DNA of 64,000 nt from an uncultured Rivularia sp. (GCA_963665115.1 OY762007.1:2176001-2240000); one strand, 5' to 3'. Counted from the stretch's first letter, positions 1,928-16,202 are shown. The notes: a model not told the origin generated them from the letters alone. Made by a program: numbers and translations.

Positions 1928-3184
1928 TCATCTACGAGCAAACCGTTTTCTTTTACGAAATAATCTTGATAAACTAAACCATAAAATTATTCCAACGGTT
2001 GATAATGCTAGTAAAAGTTGCCATAACGGTTTTGGTAGCATTAAATCGTATATTAAATCGTCAAATATATTTTTTTCAATAGCGGCTGTATTGGGATTAA
2101 TAACTCCAACATCTCCGACTATATCCATTTTCGTTTTTAACGCTAAACTTCTTTCTTGAACTTTTTTCAAAAGCTTTTGGCTTCTGTCTCCCTTTAAGAA
2201 AAAAGGCTGTGCTAAATCTTGATTTTCCCCAGCTACTGGCAGGATTTCAATACTATTAATTTGCTTAGAAGTTAAAATAAATTTGGCTAAAAAATTATCT
2301 GTCCAAAACGGATGATTGTGACCGAAAATAAAATTACCCAAGCAGTAAATTATAGGTTTATTTTTATAAATTTCTATCCCTTGCGGAAAATGGGGATGGT
2401 GCCCAAGAATAATGTCAGCACCAGAATCTATGGATTTATGCGCTAAACTGCGAACCCAAAATGGTGGCTTTTTACTGTCATTGAGTCCCCAGTGAAAAGA
2501 TAATATTACATAATCCACTTTCTGTCGTAATTTTTGAATATCTTCTCGAATTAACGATAAATCTGTAGGCATTACACCAGCACGATTCGGCTTTGCATAA
2601 CTCGAATCGCCGGAATTTTCTGACATTGTATAAGCAAGAAAACCCAAACGAATACCATTTTTTTCGCTAATAAATGGCAGTCGTGCTGAAGCCAAATCTT
2701 TACCGCTACCAACAGCAGGTAAATTAACTTGAGATAAACTGGTTAAAGTATCTTTTAATCCTGCAACTCCAGCATCAAGAGCGTGATTGTTAGCAGTAGA
2801 AACCACATCAACGCCAGCCCATTTTAATCCTGCGGCAAAAGCAGTTGGTGCTAAAAAAGCACCTTTTCTCTTAGCAGTATCCGATAAGGGAGCTTCTAAA
2901 TTAACAAAAGCAATATCGGCATCTTCTAGTACAGGCTTTATCTTTTGAAATGGATAACGCGCTTCTTCCTGTTTTGATGCAAAATCTAAATCGTATCGAA
3001 TAATTTGCCGGTGAAATAAACTTTCCTTTGACATCCTCGACCATTCTACATCCCCACCAGCGAGCAAAGTTACCTGAGATTGTGGTTGTGCGATCGCAGT
3101 TTGTGCGGGGAAGCCGAATGCAATTGCTAAATACCCGATAAATATTATTCTCGCGCACGAAGCTATTTTGAAAAGCTTATTCAT
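1928..3184 (-). CDS. CapA/PGA_cap family metallophosphoesterase with signal peptide and C-terminal TM anchor
   Basis: Motifs AGGD, NLEAP, ANNHALD, SFHWG, GHHPH and YCLGNF; hydrophobic N- and C-termini. Confidence 0.88.
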   Translation of the reverse strand: MNKLFKIASCARIIFIGYLAIAFGFPAQTAIAQPQSQVTLLAGGDVEWSRMSKESLFHRQIIRYDLDFASKQEEARYPFQKIKPVLEDADIAFVNLEAPLSDTAKRKGAFLAPTAFAAGLKWAGVDVVSTANNHALDAGVAGLKDTLTSLSQVNLPAVGSGKDLASARLPFISEKNGIRLGFLAYTMSENSGDSSYAKPNRAGVMPTDLSLIREDIQKLRQKVDYVILSFHWGLNDSKKPPFWVRSLAHKSIDSGADIILGHHPHFPQGIEIYKNKPIIYCLGNFIFGHNHPFWTDNFLAKFILTSKQINSIEILPVAGENQDLAQPFFLKGDRSQKLLKKVQERSLALKTKMDIVGDVGVINPNTAAIEKNIFDDLIYDLMLPKPLWQLLLALSTVGIILWFSLSRLFRKRKRFARR

Positions 3185-3307: not shown

Positions 3308-4510
3308 TTACTTATCATATTGTGCTGTTTCAAGTGCTTTACCTTGTTGAATGCTCAAAAACGTAGTTATTAAAGCTACGCCTGCTCCTACAAAAAATAC
3401 CCCAATTCCGGCATATTTCCAAACTGGCCCGAGCAAAATAGGCGAGAAAAATTGTCCTAAATTACTAGCCCCCGTTCCGATAGCTAAAACGCTAGAACGT
3501 ACTTCTCTCGGAGTTGATTTAGATAAAGCATCGTACAAATTAGGCATGACAATACCAAATCCCATGCCGAAAATAATTGCTGTGGGCAGAATCAAATAAA
3601 CTTGTTCTACAAAAGGTATAGTAATCAATGTTACTGCCATTAAGATAAAACCCAAGGCAATAGCTTTAGCGCTTCCCACACGCTTTGCTAATTTGCTGGC
3701 ACCTACGGCAGAAATAACGGCCGCACCAATGGCTCGCGATGCCAAAATTGCTCCATTAAGAACCGTATCGGCTCCGATTGCTTTTTTAAAATGTAGGGGA
3801 GCGTAGACAATAACTACATAAAAGATTGCAGATGACAAGGCTAAAGCTGTAAATAAGGTTAAAGTACTACTAGCTCTCAAGCTTTCAATTAATTTATCTT
3901 TTTGACCTAAATTGATTGATGAAGAACCTTGACGTTTGCGCTTTGGTAATAAAAAGTGGGCAAGTAACGCTGCTGGTAAAGCCAAACCATACATAAAAAA
4001 GGTAAATCGCCAATTGTATTTACCAAGTAAACCACCAAGAAGAGGAAAAATAATGCTGGCGATCGCCAATGCACTGGTTGTGTAACCCAAAACGCGGGTT
4101 CGCTTCTCTCCTTCATACATACTGCTGAGAATGCCGATACTCGCAGCTGCAATTCCCCCGCTGGCAGCCCCTAACAATGCTCGCGATATTAATAAAGGCG
4201 TAAAGCTGTTTGCAAAAGCCCCAGCAGTACCGAAAATTGCGTAGCAAATAAGTGATGGAATTAGCACTTTTACCTTTCCAATACGGTCGGCTAATATACC
4301 AAATATTGGACTAAACAAGAAGATTGTTAGGCAGTGCATACTAACCAGAATTCCCGACCACCGGGGATCGATTAAAAGTTGATCTTTAACCTCCGGCATC
4401 ACTGGTGCTACTAAGCTTCCCGTCATGGTGGTTAAGCTGCCACAAGCAAGTAGTACTAATAATATAGGAATTTGTTTGCGAGTTTCTTGAGTTAGAAACG
4501 AGGTAGACAT
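3308..4510 (-). CDS. MFS transporter
   Basis: About 12 hydrophobic segments; motif A GILADRIGK. Confidence 0.9.
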   Translation of the reverse strand: MSTSFLTQETRKQIPILLVLLACGSLTTMTGSLVAPVMPEVKDQLLIDPRWSGILVSMHCLTIFLFSPIFGILADRIGKVKVLIPSLICYAIFGTAGAFANSFTPLLISRALLGAASGGIAAASIGILSSMYEGEKRTRVLGYTTSALAIASIIFPLLGGLLGKYNWRFTFFMYGLALPAALLAHFLLPKRKRQGSSSINLGQKDKLIESLRASSTLTLFTALALSSAIFYVVIVYAPLHFKKAIGADTVLNGAILASRAIGAAVISAVGASKLAKRVGSAKAIALGFILMAVTLITIPFVEQVYLILPTAIIFGMGFGIVMPNLYDALSKSTPREVRSSVLAIGTGASNLGQFFSPILLGPVWKYAGIGVFFVGAGVALITTFLSIQQGKALETAQYDK

Positions 4511-4779: not shown

Positions 4780-6105
<1,326 letters not shown>

Positions 6106-6227: not shown

Positions 6228-7061
6228 TTACTTCTGCGGAAGCTTGACGTTGGTTGCTAATCCGAGGAATTGCAATAATCTAATCGTCATCCAAGTCATG
6301 TCAATTTCCCACCATTTCAATCCATGACGTGCGGAATATTGAAAAGCATGATGATTATTATGCCAACCTTCACCAAAAGTCAGCAGAGCAACCCACCAAC
6401 AGTTGGTAGAGCGATCGCCTGAATCTTGATTGCGATAGCCGATGGTATGACAAGCACTGTTGACGAACATAGTAGAGTGAATGCCGACAAACAAGCGTAC
6501 AAATGTTCCCCAAACTACAAAAGGCCATCCACCAAGCAAATATAAAATAACTCCTAACGCGACTTGCAGTTCAATATAATAACGATGGCAGAAACGATAA
6601 AATGCATCGTCGGCAATATCTTTTGTCATGCGTGGAAGTTCGGGTTTAGCAGGCACCGTATGCATTAACCAGCCGATGTGACTCCACCAGAAACCTTCAT
6701 TGGGTGTATGAGGATCTCCTTTTTCGTCGGAATGTAAATGATGTACTCGGTGATATCCAACCCAGCCCATCACACCTCCTTGAAGTGCCAAAGTCCCGCA
6801 CAAAATCAAGAAATACTCCAGCCATTTGGGAACTTGTAAGCTGCGATGGGTTGCTAAACGATGAAATCCGAAAGCAATTCCCAAACCAATAGTCATCCAG
6901 TGCAATAACACTGCGACTCCTACAGCAGCCCAGCTAAAGTTTTGGGGTAAAAATGCTAATAAGACTGCTAGATGAAGAATGACAGTAAAAATAATCACCT
7001 TCAATCGGGGAGAAGGTGGATTTAATTGAGGTAAAGAAACTGGAGATAAATTGGTAGTCAT
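6228..7061 (-). CDS. Delta-9-type membrane acyl-lipid desaturase (DesC-like paralog)
   Basis: His boxes HRLATH, HRVHH and HNNHH plus GEGWHNNHH. Start at ATG 7061 preferred because the longer ORF begins in a repeat. Confidence 0.88.
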   Translation of the reverse strand: MTTNLSPVSLPQLNPPSPRLKVIIFTVILHLAVLLAFLPQNFSWAAVGVAVLLHWMTIGLGIAFGFHRLATHRSLQVPKWLEYFLILCGTLALQGGVMGWVGYHRVHHLHSDEKGDPHTPNEGFWWSHIGWLMHTVPAKPELPRMTKDIADDAFYRFCHRYYIELQVALGVILYLLGGWPFVVWGTFVRLFVGIHSTMFVNSACHTIGYRNQDSGDRSTNCWWVALLTFGEGWHNNHHAFQYSARHGLKWWEIDMTWMTIRLLQFLGLATNVKLPQK

Positions 7062-7282
7062 GAATTTTTTTGCCCTACACCTACTTAAAGATAAAAGATA
7101 ATTTTTTGATACATTTAATACTGTGTTCCGTTCATACAGCGCTTTTCGTTTTAGTGCAATAACTTCGGGCAACCTCACCCCCTTCCCCTCTCCTTATTAA
7201 GCGGGAGGCGGGGTGAGGTTAAGTAAATTTCTGTACATACTCTAATGTCGGAACTCGGCATTAAGTAATTCTCAGATATGCT

Positions 7283-8878
7283 CTAAATAACCAAAGATTC
7301 GTTCATCTCAACTTGCTGAGACTTTTCTTTGATATTCGCTGCACGATAATCGGCTATTTGCCCTTCAATTTCATTCTGGACAACTTGACGGTAATCAATA
7401 TGATGCTCTAAAAGAGCGCACATAGTTACGTAAGAGATTAATACACTAGGATTATGCTTAAGTATCCCGAAAAGTTGACTCCAGAATTGGAATCGCGTAT
7501 TTCGTTTAATACCCTGTCGCCAAACAATAATTAATAGTGCTTTTAATTCTATTAACTCTGGCATTTTAAACTCTTTCTTGTAAGGGCGAGGCTGCATTTC
7601 CAGGTAATGGCGATAAACCCTTCCCAAGTATTTCTTTGGTTCGTATAATTCCCAGAAACACTTGACATATTCGGAGGCTAATTCTTCTATGGGACGAGTT
7701 GGAATAAAGTTAGTTAAAGAGGTTGTTTGATTGCCCGTATTGCCTTTTTGGTCAATTTCTAACAAACGCCCTTCTTTTTCTAATCGATGCCATAATGCTG
7801 TATTTGGTAGAGCTTGCAGCAAACCAAACATTGCATTCGGAATTGCAGTCGTCTCCACAAAATCAATAATGCGATCGCCTGCTCCTGCTTTTTCTCCGTC
7901 GAAACCGAGAATAAAGCCAGCCATGACTCGCAAGCCTTTACGATTAATTTTCTGAACGGCTTCTACTAAAGAATCGCGAGTGTTTTGATGCTTTTTCGTT
8001 AATGACAAACTATCCGTATCGGGTGTCTCAATTCCCAAAAATACAGAGCTAAAGTTAGCAGCAATCATTAAATCGAGCAATTCATCGTCTTGTGCTAAAT
8101 CTACTGAAGCTTCTGTTTGCAAGCTAAAGGGATAACCCCGCTCTACCATCCAAGGAATCAGTTCTTTGAGTAGAAGCTTGACATTACGTTTATTGCCGAT
8201 GAAATTATCATCTACCATAAACACCGAATGCCGCCAGCCTAAATCATACAGTGTTTGTAATTCCCCCAGCAGTTGTGCTGGAGACTTTGTACGCGGTTTG
8301 CGTCCGTAAAGTACGATAATGTCGCAAAATTCACACTGATAAGGACAACCACGGGAAAACTGCACCGACATATCGCTGTAAGCGCTTATTTCCAGTAAAT
8401 CGTATCTTGGTATCGGCGTAGTAGTAATATCGGGCTTTTCACCATTTGAGCGGAATATCCCCGAAGTTTCCCCTCTTTGAAGTGCTTCTACAAATAGAGG
8501 TAAAGTTATTTCTCCTTCATCTAGAACCAAAAAATCTACCCCTGCGGCTTGGGCTTCTTGGGGTACGGAAGTTACGTAAGGACCTCCCACCGCGACTAAT
8601 TTGTTACGCCGTTTTGCTTCGCGGATTAAGTGCAGCATATCTGGTTTCTGGACAATCATTCCGGAAACAACGATCAATTCTGCCCATTCCCAATCAGCTT
8701 CGGTTTCAGGAGCAATATTACGGTCAACTAGTCGAAAATCCCAATCTTGAGGTAGAATAGCCGCTACCGTAATCATCCCCAGAGGAGGAACAGTTACTTT
8801 ACATCCAATTAGTTCTATACTTTTGTCGAAAGACCAAAAAGATTTTGGAAACTGAGGATATAGCAGTAAAACTCGCAT
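7283..8878 (-). CDS. Cobalamin-binding radical SAM protein (DUF4070/HpnP-like class B methyltransferase family)
   Basis: N-terminal PPLGMITVAA B12-binding region; SRGCPYQCEFC (CxxxCxxC); VDDNFIGNK. Confidence 0.88.
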   Translation of the reverse strand: MRVLLLYPQFPKSFWSFDKSIELIGCKVTVPPLGMITVAAILPQDWDFRLVDRNIAPETEADWEWAELIVVSGMIVQKPDMLHLIREAKRRNKLVAVGGPYVTSVPQEAQAAGVDFLVLDEGEITLPLFVEALQRGETSGIFRSNGEKPDITTTPIPRYDLLEISAYSDMSVQFSRGCPYQCEFCDIIVLYGRKPRTKSPAQLLGELQTLYDLGWRHSVFMVDDNFIGNKRNVKLLLKELIPWMVERGYPFSLQTEASVDLAQDDELLDLMIAANFSSVFLGIETPDTDSLSLTKKHQNTRDSLVEAVQKINRKGLRVMAGFILGFDGEKAGAGDRIIDFVETTAIPNAMFGLLQALPNTALWHRLEKEGRLLEIDQKGNTGNQTTSLTNFIPTRPIEELASEYVKCFWELYEPKKYLGRVYRHYLEMQPRPYKKEFKMPELIELKALLIIVWRQGIKRNTRFQFWSQLFGILKHNPSVLISYVTMCALLEHHIDYRQVVQNEIEGQIADYRAANIKEKSQQVEMNESLVI

Positions 8879-9931: not shown

Positions 9932-11056
9932 ATGGAAATAGCTCCAATGCTAAGGAGCCAAACCGTTCAAAATCAAGTGCGCGAAGTCGGTATTAATCCA
10001 AATTATTGGTATCCCGCAACTTGGGCTTCGGAACTAAAACCAGGTGATGTAATACCCGTAATGATTTGGAATTCGGCGATCGCACTTTACCGTTCCCAGG
10101 ATGGTCAAGTTCACGCTATGGAAGATGCCTGCCCGCATAAAGGTATAGCTTTACACAAAGGTAAAGTAGCTGGAGAAAACCTTACCTGTCCTTATCACGG
10201 TTGGGAGTTTAACGGTGATGGGGTGTGTACCAACATTCCTTATTTTCCTAAAGACCAAAAATTGCCCTGTGCTTCTTCACGTAGCTATGCGGTGCGAGAA
10301 AAATTTAATTTGATCTGGATTTTTCCGGGAGCGATTGAAGATTCAGAAACAGTCGAATTTCCTTCGATTCCAGAATATGATGACCCAAACTGGCTAGCTA
10401 TTCCCATACCGGGAGAGTTTAAAGCTCATTTCTCCATCTGTAACGAAAACACGATGGACGTGTTCCACGGCTATTTACATGAAAACTTGCAGGGCTGGTT
10501 CGATCCAGAACTAATAAGTTTGAAAGCCTCCGATGCATCGGTATTTGCTATGGGTCGAGTATCTTATCAAGGTTGGATGACCAAGTTTTTCGGATTCAGC
10601 GAACAAGGGAACGAAGTTACTACTCGTACTGTCACAATTAAATATAACTATCCCCATTACCATAGTTCTTTGGAAGGAATGTCTTCCCTTTATTTGATGC
10701 GTCAACCAGTGGGGGCACAATTAACAAAATCTTTTTCCCTATTGTTTATCAAAATTCGCCTTCCTCAATGGTTTGTAAAACCGTTACAAAAACCGATAAC
10801 AAAAATCATTTGGCGGTTTATCTTGAAAAGTTTTCTCGATCAAGACACCGAGATGATTGAAAGCGAACAACAAACCTACCTAGCTAATCCCCAAAGACGT
10901 TATGTAGAAATTAATCCAGCAATCATTGCCCTACAACGGGTAATTGTCGGTCAATATGAAAAATTTGTGCAACAATCTAAAAAACTATCCAATGGCAATA
11001 ATGGTAATCACGCATCTTCGGTTGGTGAAATTAAATCAAATTTAACTTCTACTTAG
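9932..11056 (+). CDS. Rieske non-heme iron oxygenase (alpha-subunit type)
   Basis: CPHKG...CPYHGW Rieske ligands; ENTMDVFHGYLH and LDQD mononuclear iron ligands; upstream GGGAG RBS. Confidence 0.9.
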   Translation: MEIAPMLRSQTVQNQVREVGINPNYWYPATWASELKPGDVIPVMIWNSAIALYRSQDGQVHAMEDACPHKGIALHKGKVAGENLTCPYHGWEFNGDGVCTNIPYFPKDQKLPCASSRSYAVREKFNLIWIFPGAIEDSETVEFPSIPEYDDPNWLAIPIPGEFKAHFSICNENTMDVFHGYLHENLQGWFDPELISLKASDASVFAMGRVSYQGWMTKFFGFSEQGNEVTTRTVTIKYNYPHYHSSLEGMSSLYLMRQPVGAQLTKSFSLLFIKIRLPQWFVKPLQKPITKIIWRFILKSFLDQDTEMIESEQQTYLANPQRRYVEINPAIIALQRVIVGQYEKFVQQSKKLSNGNNGNHASSVGEIKSNLTST

Positions 11057-11176
11057 GAAGGTGGTACATCATCTGATATAACAGATTGGTTAATTGTACA
11101 AAGTAAAAAAGTAAATTTTCAACTGCAAACATATATTAAAAGCCCATAGGCAAATATTAGGTGAGAGGAGTTATTT

Positions 11177-12463
11177 GTGGAAGTTGTTGAAGAGTATATG
11201 CAGGGACTCTATCAAAGTGGTCTCTATCCAGATAAGTTAATTTGCCATGAAAAACATGGAAATGTAGTCGAAGTTGAAGATCCTGCCGATGGCAAGCGAT
11301 ATAAACTATTGACATTCTGCACTAACGATGTATTAGGGTTAGTTCAGTCAGAAGAAGTAAGACAAGCGGCGATTGATGCAATTGTGAAATACGGTACTTC
11401 TAATAGTTCCTGTTCCGTGTTAAGCGGCAGAATTGAGTTGCATCGTCAGTTGGAGCAAGAAATTTCGGCTTTCAAACATTTGCCCCATACTCATCTATTC
11501 CTCAATGCTTGGATGGCAATGCAAGCATTAATAGATGGTTTTTGCCACTTAGCGATTAATCTTCCTGGCTTTCGGAACACCAGAGAAACCTTAATTTTGA
11601 CTGATGTTCTCAACCACGGCTGTATAGTTTCTGCCGTTACCAATGCCAGCAATCGTTCTGGAAAGATGTTTAGTCATAGTCCTGATGTTCGCGTGAAAGC
11701 TTACCGTCATTGCGACGTAAATGACTTAGCGCGAAAATTACGACGCTATGCGAAGCCAAATGACCGAATTTTGGTAGTTTCCGATGCTGTCTTCTCAATG
11801 GATGGGGATATCGCTCCATTGCCAGAGATGCTGGACGTTTTAGAAAACTATCCAGGTAGCGTCATTGTGATGGATGAAGCTCACGCCAGCGGTGCGCTCG
11901 GTCCTAAAGGCGGCGGTATCTACGACCATTTTGGAATTACGCCCCAGCAAGTACTCGATCGGGGAATGGTGCCATTAATTATGACCACCTTCTCTAAATT
12001 TGCAGCTTCCGCAGGTGCAGCAATCAGTTCTCATATGCCAGAAATGATTGACTTGTTGGACGTTTCCCCAACCTCCATCGGTACAATTTCTCTTCCACCT
12101 CCAACAACAGCAGCAGCGTTAGAAAGTATTCGTCAGGTAAGACAAAATCCTGAATTAGTCGAAACCTTGCAAGCCAACGCGAATTACTTGCGATCGCGTT
12201 TAATCGAACATGATTTTGCAGCGATTGGCGAAACTAACGTCATACCAGTACTAATGCCACCCGAACTCAATCCCAAGCAGTTCACCCGTCATTTGATGGA
12301 ACACCACGGTATTTGGGTATCTGCGATTTGGTTTATTGCTAAACCTCGCTTAAGAATTACCGCAAACGCGCTTCATACTAAAGAAGAAATGGATAATTTG
12401 GTTGAAGCAATGGTACAAACGCGAGAGCTTTTATATAAACCTGCGACTGTAGCTACTGCTTAG
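11177..12463 (+). CDS. PLP-dependent alpha-oxoamine synthase (serine palmitoyltransferase-like)
   Basis: Motifs NDVLGL, SDAVFSMDGD, MDEAHASG, TFSK (PLP Lys) and RLRI; GAGGAG RBS before the GTG start. Confidence 0.85.
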   Translation: MEVVEEYMQGLYQSGLYPDKLICHEKHGNVVEVEDPADGKRYKLLTFCTNDVLGLVQSEEVRQAAIDAIVKYGTSNSSCSVLSGRIELHRQLEQEISAFKHLPHTHLFLNAWMAMQALIDGFCHLAINLPGFRNTRETLILTDVLNHGCIVSAVTNASNRSGKMFSHSPDVRVKAYRHCDVNDLARKLRRYAKPNDRILVVSDAVFSMDGDIAPLPEMLDVLENYPGSVIVMDEAHASGALGPKGGGIYDHFGITPQQVLDRGMVPLIMTTFSKFAASAGAAISSHMPEMIDLLDVSPTSIGTISLPPPTTAAALESIRQVRQNPELVETLQANANYLRSRLIEHDFAAIGETNVIPVLMPPELNPKQFTRHLMEHHGIWVSAIWFIAKPRLRITANALHTKEEMDNLVEAMVQTRELLYKPATVATA

Positions 12464-12538
12464 AAATTGAAAAGGGTGGGCATCCCTGCCCCACAATAGT
12501 TGTAAATCTTCTTGATTTGTAAGAATTGTCGAGATTTT

Positions 12539-12571
12539 AGAAACCCGGTTTTTTCAAAAAACCGGGTTTCT
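12539..12571. repeat. Perfect palindromic dispersed repeat AGAAACCCGGTTTTTT-C-AAAAAACCGGGTTTCT
   Basis: Near-identical copy at 16799-16830. Confidence 0.75.
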
Positions 12572-12740
12572 GAATTTTTTGATGGTGCGTTATGCTGCGC
12601 GATGACACACCCTACGTTCTCAAAAGCGCACTTTTTGCTATTTCCTGTTCCCTGTGCCAAACAATTAAAATAAACCAATAAAAATATCATAATTAAAAAT
12701 TTAACTGTAACTTTTTTACATTAAACGCAAAACTTTATTA

Positions 12741-13892
12741 GTGAATATGGTTACTCAAACTCAAAATTTTCAGGTATCACCTGTAACTACAGACGCACAG
12801 AGGGAAATGTTCCTCGATGTGCCTGTTAAAGTATATAAAAATAATCCTAATTGGGTTCCACCAATTCGCAGCAGCATTGCCAAACAATTAGCATCAAACG
12901 AAAATCCTTTTTTGGAATATGGAGAATTTCAGCAGTTTATTGCTATTTCTCAAAAGAATAACGAACCTTTAGGAAGAATTGTCGCTATAGTAAATCGCCG
13001 ATTAATTGAAAGCGAAGGTAAAAATGTCGGTCTTTTTGGTTATTTTGAATGCCTAGAAGACTTTGAGGTTGCTAATAGTCTATTAGAAACAGCTTCCAAG
13101 TGGTTGCGCGATAAAGGGATGAATTTTGTCAGGGGACCAATAAATTTATCTACTCACAATAGCTGTTTATTTTTAGTAGATAAATTTGATCAACCACCAA
13201 TCATGATGACACCTTATAATCCGCCTTATTATCCTGAATTTATGGAAAAGGCTGGTTATTACAAAGGAAATGATGCATATGTTTTCAATTTTCCCTTAGA
13301 TACTGCTTTAGACCCTAAATTTGAAAAAGCTTATCGAATTGCTTGTAAATCTGGAGTAACATTTCGCCCACTCCGCACTAAAGGTGAAGGTTTTGAACAA
13401 GATTGTCGAGATATATATAACCTTGTAGGTAAAGTTTTTACTAAAAATTATAGTTATAGCTACCGTACTGTAGAAGAATTTCTCAGTCAGGCTAAAGATT
13501 TGCAAGATATGGCTGACCCAGATGTATTTCCCATAGCCGAACATGACGGTAAAATGATTGGTGTTTGGATGGGAATACCAGACTATAATATTGTTTTAAA
13601 ACATATTAACGGTAAACTAAATTGGTTAGGAATTATCAAATTCCTTTGGTATCGCCGTCAAATTGACCAAGGGATAGTACCCCTTATTGCTTGTTTGCCT
13701 GAGTATCGCCGCAAAATGGTGCCTTTAGCTCTTGTTTACTTAGGTATGCAAGGAGGAATCCGAAAAGGAAAGCCCTACAAAAGAGCAGAACTCGGTTGGG
13801 TATGGGAAGATAACTCAGCTTCCCGCAAAATGATTGAAGCAGCAGGCGGCAAAATCTACAAGACTTACCGAATTTACGAGAAAGCGTTATGA
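12741..13892 (+). CDS. GNAT-fold N-acyltransferase resembling bacterial ceramide synthase (bCerS)
   Basis: Motifs YxxxPNWVPP, GRIVA, GLFGYFE, WLRDKGM...GP, PPIMMTPYNPPYY and ELGWVWEDN...YKTYRIYEK; directly downstream of the SPT-like gene. Confidence 0.75.
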   Translation: MNMVTQTQNFQVSPVTTDAQREMFLDVPVKVYKNNPNWVPPIRSSIAKQLASNENPFLEYGEFQQFIAISQKNNEPLGRIVAIVNRRLIESEGKNVGLFGYFECLEDFEVANSLLETASKWLRDKGMNFVRGPINLSTHNSCLFLVDKFDQPPIMMTPYNPPYYPEFMEKAGYYKGNDAYVFNFPLDTALDPKFEKAYRIACKSGVTFRPLRTKGEGFEQDCRDIYNLVGKVFTKNYSYSYRTVEEFLSQAKDLQDMADPDVFPIAEHDGKMIGVWMGIPDYNIVLKHINGKLNWLGIIKFLWYRRQIDQGIVPLIACLPEYRRKMVPLALVYLGMQGGIRKGKPYKRAELGWVWEDNSASRKMIEAAGGKIYKTYRIYEKAL

Positions 13893-14860
13893 AAGCTTTA
13901 GTTACAGGTGCCAATGGTTTCACGGGTTCGCACTTAGTAAAAGCGCTACAGCAGCGCGGCGATTCGGTTATTGGACTAGTGCGAAAATCCAGCGATTTAA
14001 CAAGATTAGAAAATACAGGAATACATTTAGTTACGGGAGACATTACCGATCGCAACGCCTTACGTCAAGCGATGCAGGATGTTGACATGGTATTCCATAC
14101 AGCAGCTTTTGTGGAGTTAGGTTTAGTCGATGCCGCAAAAATGGAACGGGTAAACGTCGAAGGAACTCAAGCCGTTTTAGAAGTTGCCAAGGAAATGGGA
14201 ATTTTAAAAATGGTTTATTGCAGCACCATCGGCATTTATGGCGATACCAAAGGTGAAATCATCGATGAAACCTTTGAAAGAACTCAAGAAAACTTCTCCT
14301 CTGCTTACGACAGCACCAAATATGAAGCACAGCAGCTAGTTGACAACTACGCCGTCATCGGTTTTCCCGTAGTTAGCGTTATGCCTTCAGGTATTTTTGG
14401 CCCAGACGATCCGCATTTTGGCCCCGTATTTAAACTATTTTTGCAAGGTAAATTAAAACTCTGGGTAGCTGGCGATCGCATGACAGGGATAGTTCATGTG
14501 GACGATCTTGTAAATGCCATGATATTGGCAGCAGAAAAAGGCGAAAGAGGAGAACATTACATAATTTCTGCTGGTGAAGTTCCCTCCCGCGAAATGTTTG
14601 AAATTATCAGCGAACAGACAGGCATTTCCACACCTACGGAAGTTCCACAACCGATAGTTAGAATTGCAGGTAATATTCTTGACCCGATAGGAAGCTTATT
14701 CTCATGGAATCCACCAATAGGTAAAGAGCGCTTACATTACTTGTACGACCGCTGCGTGCGAGTCGATGCAAAGAAAGCGCGTGAAAAATTAGGTTGGCAA
14801 CCCCGTTCTGTGTCCCAAACATTACAAGAAATTGCTACACACTTACAATCTCAAATTTAA
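13889..14860 (+). CDS. NAD(P)-dependent epimerase/dehydratase family (extended SDR) reductase
   Basis: VTGANGFTG Rossmann motif; YDSTK (YxxxK); ATGA overlap with the upstream gene. Confidence 0.88.
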   Translation: MKALVTGANGFTGSHLVKALQQRGDSVIGLVRKSSDLTRLENTGIHLVTGDITDRNALRQAMQDVDMVFHTAAFVELGLVDAAKMERVNVEGTQAVLEVAKEMGILKMVYCSTIGIYGDTKGEIIDETFERTQENFSSAYDSTKYEAQQLVDNYAVIGFPVVSVMPSGIFGPDDPHFGPVFKLFLQGKLKLWVAGDRMTGIVHVDDLVNAMILAAEKGERGEHYIISAGEVPSREMFEIISEQTGISTPTEVPQPIVRIAGNILDPIGSLFSWNPPIGKERLHYLYDRCVRVDAKKAREKLGWQPRSVSQTLQEIATHLQSQI

Positions 14861-14885
14861 AGATAAAACAAAAATAAGGTTGTTG

Positions 14886-14933
14886 GTAGTTGCGCTTCAG
14901 CGCCTCCGAGAAGAAGCGCTAAAGCGCAACTAC
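14886..14933. repeat. GTAG-type REP-like inverted pair
   Basis: gtagttgcgcttcagcgc...gcgctaaagcgcaactac. Confidence 0.7.
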
Positions 14934-15067
14934 GAACCTGCTAAGTCCTCATTATTGCAACCTATTAAAGATTTTTAACGTCCTCAACAAAGTAGTGTTG
15001 TACGCAATTATCATGTCGATAAATTGTTACGATAAATTACAAGACAGATATTTCTTCAAAAGCTTAT

Positions 15068-15577
15068 ATGAATTCAGTGTTATTTAGTGCTTCGACAGCA
15101 ATAATTTGTTTCCTAATTGCCTTCACACTGGCGAGTTTGGTGGAATACTGGCTGCATCGTTTGATGCACGTTAATCGTAAAATTGGTGAACGTCATCGCG
15201 ATCATCATCGTCGCAACGAAGGACAAGGTGTAGTCTGGGAGTTTCGCGATTATGTTGTTGGTAGCTTAGTCGTCTTGCCATTAATGTTTTTCTTTTCTTG
15301 GAGTGCTGGTTTGGGTTGGTTGCTCGGAAGTTTGAGCTATGCGGCTTTTTCAGCATATGCTCATCAATTACAGCATGAAAATCCAACCAAATGCTTCTGG
15401 ATGAAAATGCCAGTTCATTACGTCCATCATAAATACGGGATGTGGGAGCATAACTTTGGTTTAGCTGTAGACTGGTGGGACCATGTTTTCGGTACTTACA
15501 AACCTGTTGAAGAATGGATCGGTGAAAAAGAAATTGCGCTATCCGAACGCGGTTATTTACAGTTGAAGTGGTGGTAG
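15068..15577 (+). CDS. Fatty acid hydroxylase/sterol desaturase family membrane protein
   Basis: His boxes EYWLHRLMH, HRDHH, HQLQH and HYVHH; NFGL...WWDHVFGT. Confidence 0.88.
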   Translation: MNSVLFSASTAIICFLIAFTLASLVEYWLHRLMHVNRKIGERHRDHHRRNEGQGVVWEFRDYVVGSLVVLPLMFFFSWSAGLGWLLGSLSYAAFSAYAHQLQHENPTKCFWMKMPVHYVHHKYGMWEHNFGLAVDWWDHVFGTYKPVEEWIGEKEIALSERGYLQLKWW

Positions 15578-15578
15578 A

Positions 15579-15810
15579 GTATTTGCGCGGATGGTAAGGT
15601 GTTGAAAAATAAATTGAAAAAATAATTGCTGAATCCCATATTGGATAAGGCTTTGAAGCATTATTTTACCTACAACCATCCGCGCACCTTACCTGGACTG
15701 GATTTCAGCGATTTTGCCCCTTCTCTATTTTGTTTTCCCATGCTACTATTAGGTCATCCGCGCAACCGAACCTTGAAAACCATATACAGACAGTGTTCTG
15801 AAATAGTGCA
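15579..15810 (+). promoter_or_regulatory. CRISPR leader
   Basis: Non-coding region abutting the first intact repeat; carries TGCGCGGATGG (15584) with inverted copies at about 15676 and 15755, resembling cyanobacterial leaders. Confidence 0.7.
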
Positions 15811-16202
15811 GTTGAAATTACCTCTAATCCCTATTAGGGATTGAAACGGGAAATACGCTAATCCATCATTTTTTGACAAAAGTTGAAATTACCTCTAATC
15901 CCTATTAGGGATTGAAACACGTCGTATTGCAAAAACAGATGCGGAAAAAGAATGTTGAAATTACCTCTAATCCCTATTAGGGATTGAAACACAGAAGACA
16001 AGAAAGAAGGTTTGAGAGCTACAGGTTGAAATTACCTCTAATCCCTATTAGGGATTGAAACGCAGAAACGATACTCAAACTATTGGTATTACCAAGTTGA
16101 AATTACCTCTAATCCCTATTAGGGATTGAAACGGAAGAATTGGTAGTTAAGAAGTGATTATTTACGTTGAAATCGCCTCTAATCTCTATTAAGGATTAGA
16201 AA
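15811..16202 (+). CRISPR. CRISPR array with 6 x 37-bp repeats (GTTGAAATTACCTCTAATCCCTATTAGGGATTGAAAC) and 5 spacers of 33-35 bp; type I-D-like repeat
   Basis: Identical repeats at 15811, 15882, 15954, 16025 and 16096; degenerate terminal repeat at 16166; AATCCCTA/TAGGGATT hairpin and ATTGAAAC 3' end; no cas genes in the window. Confidence 0.97.

Follow-up and report, generated by a model that had tools for sequence, protein, structure and literature searches.

A conserved cyanobacterial gene cluster built on a distinct alpha-oxoamine synthase family, a candidate source of a non-canonical ceramide-like lipid

The stretch of DNA analysed here (the window; 64,000 nucleotides of an uncultured Rivularia sp., GCA_963665115.1 OY762007.1:2176001-2240000) carries at positions 9932-15577 a block of five genes, for a Rieske oxygenase, an alpha-oxoamine synthase (AOS), a GNAT acyltransferase, a short-chain dehydrogenase/reductase (SDR) and a His-box hydroxylase, which is the core of a cluster of about 13 genes that extends past the left edge of the window. 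The cluster is real and conserved, it is apparently undescribed, and it is best regarded as a variant of the bacterial ceramide-type pathway rather than as a member of its serine palmitoyltransferase (SPT)/CerR form. Judged from the sequences, its product is likely to be a ceramide-like lipid, that is an N-acylated long-chain amino alcohol, in a non-canonical version that is possibly not made from serine, and we put the probability of this reading at about one half. The first-pass annotation of the window had seen in the block the enzyme logic for an N-acylated amino-alcohol lipid, which is borne out by the family of the acyltransferase, by the AOS-GNAT-SDR gene order and by the strict co-inheritance of this trio.

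The source genome is a single contig of 8.69 Mb (99.9% complete), and the loci nearest to the block come from Rivularia/Calothrix-type cyanobacteria. As had been claimed, the five open reading frames are intact and co-oriented on the + strand. The Rieske non-heme iron oxygenase (9932-11056; Pfam Rieske and VanA_C, motifs CxH...CxxH and NxxDxxHxxxxH), an accessory tailoring oxygenase, is followed by the AOS (11177-12463; GTG start, Pfam Aminotran_1_2), the N-acyltransferase (12741-13892), the extended SDR (13889-14860; Pfam Epimerase, GxxGxxG and YxxxK) and a short membrane protein of the fatty-acid hydroxylase/sterol-desaturase family (15068-15577; PF04116) with four His boxes and two hydrophobic segments, so that Pfam and motifs confirm both the leading Rieske oxygenase and the His-box hydroxylase. 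Cofactor and catalytic motifs of the SDR, predicted to be a 3-keto reductase, are intact, and its gene is coupled to that of the GNAT by the ATGA overlap noted at first (13889-13892). The operon that had been proposed is putative as a single transcript, in view of the gaps between the genes (120, 277, -4 and 207 bases) and of an 18-pair hairpin between AOS and GNAT (12536-12574). The hairpin is probably a dispersed repeat, many contigs with unrelated flanks terminating there, but transcripts may also be terminated or processed at it. The AOS-GNAT gap measures 30 bases or less in 14 of 51 other loci. A promoter scan gave no signal (23 sites versus 19 expected), and although contigs of relatives, mostly 85-95% alike, span both arms in four RNA libraries from two studies, DNA carry-over is possible and we do not count them as evidence.

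The grouping recurs across cyanobacteria in a manner that is not chance. Within flanks of up to 8 kb fetched around 80 AOS loci, the Rieske gene is found in 60, the GNAT gene in 51, the SDR gene in 38 and the hydroxylase gene in 35, and the four-base overlap is kept in 30 of the 38 loci having both GNAT and SDR. Of 251 genomes sampled evenly over the phylum, 22, this one included, have an AOS orthologue (E<1e-200); all 22 belong to the 111 genomes of the window's class, they span 13 family codes and each holds a second AOS. Within the window's own family one of 32 other genomes carries the gene. A panel was formed of these 22 genomes and of 58 negative ones, hand-chosen across families from the 89 that the class contains, and searched at E-value thresholds set per query; as kin are not independent, no test statistic is given. 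Orthologues of the GNAT (full-length) and of the SDR each occur in 22/22 positive and 0/58 negative genomes, two of the negatives showing weak partial GNAT matches. The same pattern is seen for the hydroxylase (orthologues of at least 67% in 21/22 versus 0/58; paralogues of 50-55% in four of the 58 negatives), a major facilitator superfamily (MFS) transporter (21/22 versus 0/58), a GH3 protein (19/22 versus 0/58) and the Rieske oxygenase (E<1e-130; 16/22 versus 0/58, with a widespread 31-38% paralogue), and similar figures were obtained for an FtsX-type permease (21/22 versus 4/58) and for an amidohydrolase that is absent from this genome (16/22 versus 0/58). AOS, GNAT and SDR are co-inherited even where they lie apart, as in genome G017, and eight of nine further genomes whose AOS locus is devoid of a GNAT gene have a GNAT orthologue, the miss being a metagenome-assembled genome (MAG) of unknown completeness. 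The symbiont Richelia intracellularis HH01, in spite of its small genome, retains Rieske-AOS-GNAT-SDR together with GH3, and the AOS is carried by Moorena producens PAL, a cerebroside having been reported from a field sample of this species (PMC6272925). In the panel GNAT and SDR are found only with the AOS, and hydroxylase, MFS, GH3 and Rieske behave likewise, so that the five genes singled out at first make up the core of a larger cluster, of which the MFS, GH3 and FtsX/ABC (ATP-binding cassette) genes and the variable tailoring genes had been missed. Two Mastigocoleus loci (L026, L027) have intact genes for AOS, GNAT, SDR and hydroxylase next to pieces (31-43%) of a Rieske gene that seems to be decayed or frameshifted.

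The GNAT open reading frame matches no Pfam or NCBIfam model at E<=1e-3, and a search of solved structures returned marginal GNAT matches only. Its designation as a GNAT acyltransferase is upheld by full-length matches to YghO, 'dATP pyrophosphohydrolase' and GNAT entries and by GNAT clusters of the ESM Atlas (0.98-0.99), which carry generic names only. Plasmid records of the YghO/bCerS family yielded 46 matches, 44 of them with at least 80% coverage. Against seven family references, among them homologues from E. coli B, Sphingomonas and Roseomonas that stand in for the Caulobacter protein, the GNAT is 27-34% identical over its full length (E 1e-41 to 1e-69; 27% and E 1e-45 for E. coli YghO) and scores 138-213 bits, the references scoring 110-339 bits among themselves. 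It is thus a full-length bCerS/YghO homologue within the family's own spread, in keeping with the earlier label CerS-like, and its gene is partnered in the genomes by those of an AOS and a reductase. For the acyltransferase CC_1154 of Caulobacter, the counterpart given in the literature is E. coli B yghO (ECD_02850; PMC9386255).

The GNAT of the window is an unusual allele. Its identity to the orthologues of 15 close Rivularia-type loci is 78-83%, where the AOS reach 92-97%, yet it is 96% identical to that of locus L005, and nine positions kept in at least 90% of 50 other orthologues are changed, all of them past residue 180, from about where the allele diverges; some of the changes are common to Mastigocoleus. 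Likewise, a JmjC gene at the left edge of the window is 76% identical to its Mastigocoleus counterpart versus 58-59% to those of three Rivularia-type loci. These affinities look like allele exchange, and an exchanged GNAT allele suggests variants of the product among strains.

The first enzyme of the trio appears to represent a distinct AOS family that matches none of the known families tested. Of the two AOS genes in the genome, the other passes the BioF cut-off (469 versus 426 bits), whereas the product of the window gene (427 amino acids) falls short of every curated cut-off, scoring 231 bits on BioF (cut-off 426), 189 and 156 on Kbl (460 and 493), 174 on 5-aminolevulinate synthase (ALAS; 339) and 172, 160 and 112 on three SPT models (640, 500 and 670); the E. 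coli, Sphingomonas and Bacteroides references do pass an SPT cut-off. In three trees (FastTree, 159 rows; IQ-TREE quick tree, 51 rows; approximately unbiased (AU) tests, 28 rows) the family forms its own clade with 100% support and a long stem, apart from the SPT (95-99%), BioF and Kbl groups, and the AU tests leave each pairing standing, be it with SPT (p=0.30), Kbl (p=0.42) or cyanobacterial BioF (p=0.15). The SPT-like identity first given to the enzyme is not supported by the model cut-offs or by its place in the trees, although sisterhood with SPT is not rejected. The family is a close-knit one, with 73-97% identity for the 80 best out of 295 confirmed stretches; next comes a handful of relatives at 37-62%, followed by a drop to about 30-38%. 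The relatives beyond cyanobacteria include a protein of a Pseudomonadota MAG (P0122, 51%) and P0124-P0130 (37-56%), of which P0122, P0124, P0126, P0127 and P0129 (37-51%) are distant members of this AOS family, and in a metagenome scan two of 80 loci belong to the family, both cyanobacteria-like.

Membership in the AOS superfamily is clear from the stacking His, the D-x-x-H motif, the T-x-S/G-K motif of the Schiff-base Lys and the C-terminal Arg, all of which are kept: none of the 78 full-length orthologues (two shorter ones of the 80 were omitted) departs from the pyridoxal 5'-phosphate and catalytic residues N50, H147, D233, H236, T271, K274, T303 and R393, and the DEAH and TFSK motifs noticed at the outset lie at 233-236 and 271-274. 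The structure prediction (mean pLDDT 71.5) shows the fold of the AOS (TM of about 0.76-0.80), with ALAS, ThAOS, Kbl and SPT as top Foldseek matches (E 1e-30 to 1e-25). What sets the family apart from 13 references is the pocket. Val or Ile replaces the reference Tyr at position 52, Ser, Glu or Pro replaces Arg at position 80 (Arg in 12/13 references), Ala replaces Gly at position 111 (Gly in 11/13), next to a fixed Trp112, and Gly replaces an aromatic residue at position 302. Position 304 is Ile in 77 of the 78 orthologues, as opposed to Ala in all six SPT or SPT-like references, Thr in BioF and ALAS and Asn or Thr in Kbl. The loop at 78-80 most commonly reads S-C-S versus G-S-R in SPT, and the loop ahead of the C-terminal Arg is shorter than in the references. 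The position equivalent to 304, Ala274 of SmSPT, separates SulA (Lys) from SPT (Ala) (PMC9304779), and several of the other remodelled positions belong to the walls of the SmSPT pockets for amino acid and acyl chain (PMC10196870). In our alignment Ile304 falls on the partner-subunit pocket Lys of chain 28eh, and the Lys of SulA/CFAT is not found there.

But could the AOS still be a fast-evolving SPT that makes 3-ketosphinganine, the product of the cluster then being an ordinary, hydroxylated dihydroceramide derived from serine? The best match of the AOS among PDB sequences, found with the single sequence and with the family profile alike, is Sphingobacterium SPT (E 1e-39), a clade with SPT survives the AU test, and the Cys at position 79 (73/78) is near the SPT Ser in size; moreover, a cerebroside with a C17 sphingoid base is described from Moorea (PMC6272925). 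The same test however keeps Kbl and BioF as well, the scores on the SPT models are far under those of even distant Spt-like references (377-487 bits), and not only Ile304 but also the replacements of Tyr52, Arg80, Gly111 and aromatic 302 speak against a serine pocket. We therefore regard an ordinary serine ceramide as rather unlikely.

How does the cluster compare with established pathways? In the bacterial ceramide pathway as described (Spt-bCerS-CerR; PMC11087976, PMC11334938, PMC9393093), an AOS, a bCerS/YghO acyltransferase and an NAD(P)-dependent reductase are likewise inherited together (Caulobacter CCNA_01220/01212/01222; E. coli B spt-acpR-epi-aasR-yghO). Unlike there, the AOS of the window lies outside the SPT clade, the SDR is not CerR-like, and no dedicated acyl carrier protein (ACP), acyl-ACP synthetase or LptFG is present, whereas GH3, Rieske, MFS, FtsX/ABC and the short His-box hydroxylase are additional conserved partners. 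The parallel first drawn with the Caulobacter-type ceramide hydroxylase is not supported in the comparison made, the hydroxylase showing no significant match (E 0.08) to the sterol-desaturase gene that adjoins Roseomonas bCerS. Actinobacterial spt-like operons (Rubrobacter, L088; Streptomyces, L089) show the same AOS-GNAT-SDR order without a linked ACP, and their GNATs are the best-scoring references for that of the window (213 and 189 bits, respectively); their AOS, Spt-like by context, differ in that they group with SPT and score 377-444 bits on the CFB SPT model versus 172 here. That an AOS branch separate from SPT can yield a ceramide analogue from another amino acid, with a change at SPT Ala274, is known from the cysteate acyltransferase SulA/CFAT of sulfonolipid (capnine) synthesis (PMC9304779, PMC13692747); this enzyme has Lys at that position where the window AOS has Ile, and no cysteate synthase family is conserved in our loci.

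On these grounds we propose the following pathway for a ceramide-like lipid. The AOS would produce a 3-keto long-chain base by condensation of a fatty acyl thioester and a small amino acid, the acyl donor probably being acyl-ACP from general fatty-acid synthesis, because no dedicated ACP is linked, and alanine or glycine, which would give a base of the 1-deoxy type, being at least as likely as serine, given the pocket Ile where six SPT references have Ala. The bCerS-family GNAT would then attach the N-acyl chain and the coupled SDR, as a non-orthologous CerR stand-in, would reduce the ketone. Tailoring of the chains may fall to the His-box hydroxylase and the Rieske oxygenase and, depending on the lineage, to OlsC-like and JmjC hydroxylases, a desaturase and methylases, while GH3 may form a further amide from a free acid and ATP, either by reacylating the base or by adding an amino-acid group, and the MFS transporter and the FtsX/ABC pair may move the product out of the cytoplasm.

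Several observations weigh against such a lipid. The best score of the AOS on an SPT model (172 bits) is lower than that of the genome's own BioF (351 bits), and the AOS sits outside the SPT clade in all three trees. The hint given by the pocket at a substrate that is not serine is a weak one, since first-shell swaps failed to make the cysteate enzyme CFAT use serine (PMC13692747). The SDR scores 125-169 bits to HpnA-type and haloarchaeal SDRs versus 65-97 bits to four spt-linked reductases, which score 101-152 bits among themselves, and it also resembles PDB 3WJ7; the earlier claim of a CerR-like reductase is not sustained, and the SDR most likely stands in functionally for CerR without being its orthologue. 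A Chloroflexota plasmid carries a bCerS-family gene without an AOS neighbour, so that membership in this family alone is no proof of ceramide synthesis. The literature searched ties no such lipid to these genes, and the Moorea cerebroside, with its C25 acyl chain, was described from a hand-collected field sample (PMC6272925) and may for these reasons come from another organism. Finally, two exporters, interchangeable tailoring genes, patchy distribution and the swapped GNAT allele fit a secreted metabolite equally well.

Whether cyanobacteria make sphingolipids has been stated to be an open question, two ceramides being reported from Scytonema and Moorea without a genetic basis (PMC8895605). 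On the statement in the first-pass annotation that Nostoc has SPT-like genes but no detected sphingolipid, the single genetic test reports no sphingolipid in Nostoc punctiforme, but the gene in question is BioF, the only AOS of that strain (PMC8895605), and the null result is therefore no argument against the cluster. The second AOS given there for M. producens, with 571 amino acids, is by its length presumably not the 427-residue enzyme of the window. A full-text literature search, with most subscription journals and supplements outside its scope, found no paper on the cluster. SPT surveys at E<=1e-70, as in PMC11334938, would probably miss the AOS family, because its best SPT matches lie at E 1e-39 to 1e-48. 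The cluster thus names candidate genes, test strains and cluster-free control genomes for the sphingolipid question. If our reading is correct, a major group of primary producers would gain a lipid class, some of the unattributed ceramide-type lipids of mats and sediments would have a possible source, and the AOS would be joined by a new family whose pocket is rebuilt. More tentatively, the cluster could specify a new class of amino-lipid in about a fifth of cyanobacteria (22 of the 111 genomes of the window's class): a ceramide analogue for which a new AOS family would use some amino acid that is not serine and GH3 would supply a second amide or an amino-acid head, with oxidation by Rieske and His-box enzymes, export through dedicated transporters and diversification among strains through swaps of the GNAT allele. 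Such a pathway would join ceramide and GH3 amino-lipid chemistry, but we hold it to be possible rather than probable.

To the left of the block the cluster continues mostly on the - strand. A B12-dependent radical SAM protein with a DUF4070 domain (7283-8878, -, divergent from the block; Pfam, 21/80 AOS loci) is a predicted C-methylase and a variable accessory; a fatty-acid desaturase (6228-7178, -; Pfam, 14/80) and a cyclopropane fatty-acyl synthase-like methyltransferase (4780-6084, -; Pfam/NCBIfam, 13/80) are accessories of the closest, Rivularia-type loci only. They are followed by the MFS transporter (3308-4510, -; 39/80), a core partner, and by further accessories, a PGA_cap (CapA-like) protein (1928-3184, -; 9/80, family read on the L029 orthologue) and an OlsC/LpxO-like acyl 2-hydroxylase (Asp_Arg_Hydrox; 1105-1866, +; 10/80). 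A JmjC/cupin-8 oxygenase (1-857, +; family search) starts about 120 bases left of the window; upstream of it, and ending 375 bases left of the window, lies the GH3 amido-synthetase (L083 13929-15626), divergent from an FtsX-type permease with its ABC ATPase (L083 10827-12980). In other families the recurring layout comprises amidohydrolase-Mpo1-hydroxylase, GH3, MFS, Rieske-AOS-GNAT-SDR and FtsX/ABC, all of which stand together in genome G225, the Mpo1-like proteins being 2-hydroxy fatty-acid dioxygenases. The remark that ACP and acyl ligase genes are lacking holds for the block and, as to ACP, for the window, in which none of 40 PP-binding hits falls, but an acyl-adenylating GH3 gene lies just left of the window. 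GH3 enzymes adenylate free acids, which is a partial answer to the missing acyl ligase. A second GH3 gene of this genome (L142, G000:C1:4276000-4293000) is 55-56% identical to the first and, like it, has an FtsX-type permease gene in divergent orientation (87% identity to the first permease), which suggests a duplicated GH3-permease unit. In two loci from different families (L111 and L125; genomes G231 and G011) the cluster adjoins a conserved three-gene set with a 648-residue member that is probably the acyl-ACP synthetase Aas.

The content of the larger cluster bears on a different kind of product, a small exported N-acyl amino alcohol or amino ketone that would serve as signal, surfactant or defence compound and be made by a natural-product cluster with interchangeable tailoring genes. 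The MFS transporter and the FtsX/ABC permease are each kept in 21 of the 22 positive genomes, the accessory content is strongly variable, the GNAT allele is sharply unlike that of close relatives, the AOS recurs in a single one of the 32 other genomes of the window's family, and, unlike proteobacterial operons, the loci have neither head-group transferase nor Lpt-type genes as conserved members. Then again, the family of the GNAT has a characterised member that acylates long-chain bases, the neighbours are modifiers of fatty-acyl chains, the core is 68-97% conserved over 13 family codes and kept in a reduced symbiont genome, and no polyketide synthase or non-ribosomal peptide synthetase family is conserved alongside. 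We consider an exported metabolite of this kind doubtful.

GH3 and the OlsC-like hydroxylase, whose gene often lies directly behind that of GH3 and adjoins it in three panel genomes, might alternatively form an ornithine-type acyloxyacyl amino-lipid, with AOS-GNAT-SDR serving this synthesis or merely travelling along. A planctomycete GH3, OlsH of Singulisphaera, which is described to make N-acyl ornithine from a free fatty acid and ATP and so to start ornithine-lipid synthesis (PMC12493201), is likewise linked to amino-lipid genes, OlsC is the highest-scoring model for the hydroxylase of the window, and two loci carry an alpha/beta hydrolase gene in the vicinity of GH3 or AOS. Unlike in the OlsH/OlsI system, GH3 is found here only with the trio and no OlsI-like hydrolase is conserved, the likeness to OlsH being one of family rather than of direct alignment. 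As GH3 was not found in three of the 22 trio-positive genomes and never occurs without the trio (0/58), it depends on the trio and not the reverse. Moreover, ornithine-lipid synthesis needs no AOS, and the OlsC score (263 bits) is below the cut-off of 450. An ornithine-type lipid is accordingly improbable.

Modification of a sterol or hopanoid by the Rieske, SDR and His-box enzymes, in the manner of SdmA/SdmB and HpnA relatives, is called to mind by the best NCBIfam models, SdmA for the Rieske oxygenase and HpnA/SdmB for the SDR, and by the adjacent DUF4070 B12 radical SAM gene. All these scores are however below cut-off (SdmA 228/600, SdmB 150/600 and HpnA 201/368 bits), squalene-hopene cyclase shows the reverse of co-occurrence (11/22 positive versus 42/58 negative genomes), and neither the cyclase model nor the SQHop_cyclase_C domain was found in this one-contig genome, so that we reject the idea as very improbable. 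That the AOS is a second BioF or Kbl with unrelated neighbours can be dismissed, since its top model score, on BioF, is far under the cut-off, that on Kbl fails as well, a true BioF is encoded elsewhere in the genome, all 22 positive genomes have a second AOS, and the gene is strictly co-inherited with GNAT and SDR. Replacement of lipid A was considered too and rejected, LpxC being present and thus giving no sign of a lipid that stands in for lipopolysaccharide.

The DUF4070 radical SAM protein has the architecture of the hopanoid methylase HpnP and, like its 65% paralogue, occurs in a genome in which no triterpene cyclase was found; it must act on something else. Just past the hydroxylase gene, at 15810-16200 of the window, lies a short CRISPR-like array with a period of about 71 and 4.6 copies by TRF, closed by a degenerate repeat; a cas-like gene was not recognised alongside. 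Further to the right, and not conserved next to the lipid cluster in the loci examined, a long polysaccharide cluster (23142-46781, +) encodes Wzm/Wzt ABC export with two Wzt, a GDP-mannose dehydratase and many glycosyl- and methyltransferases.

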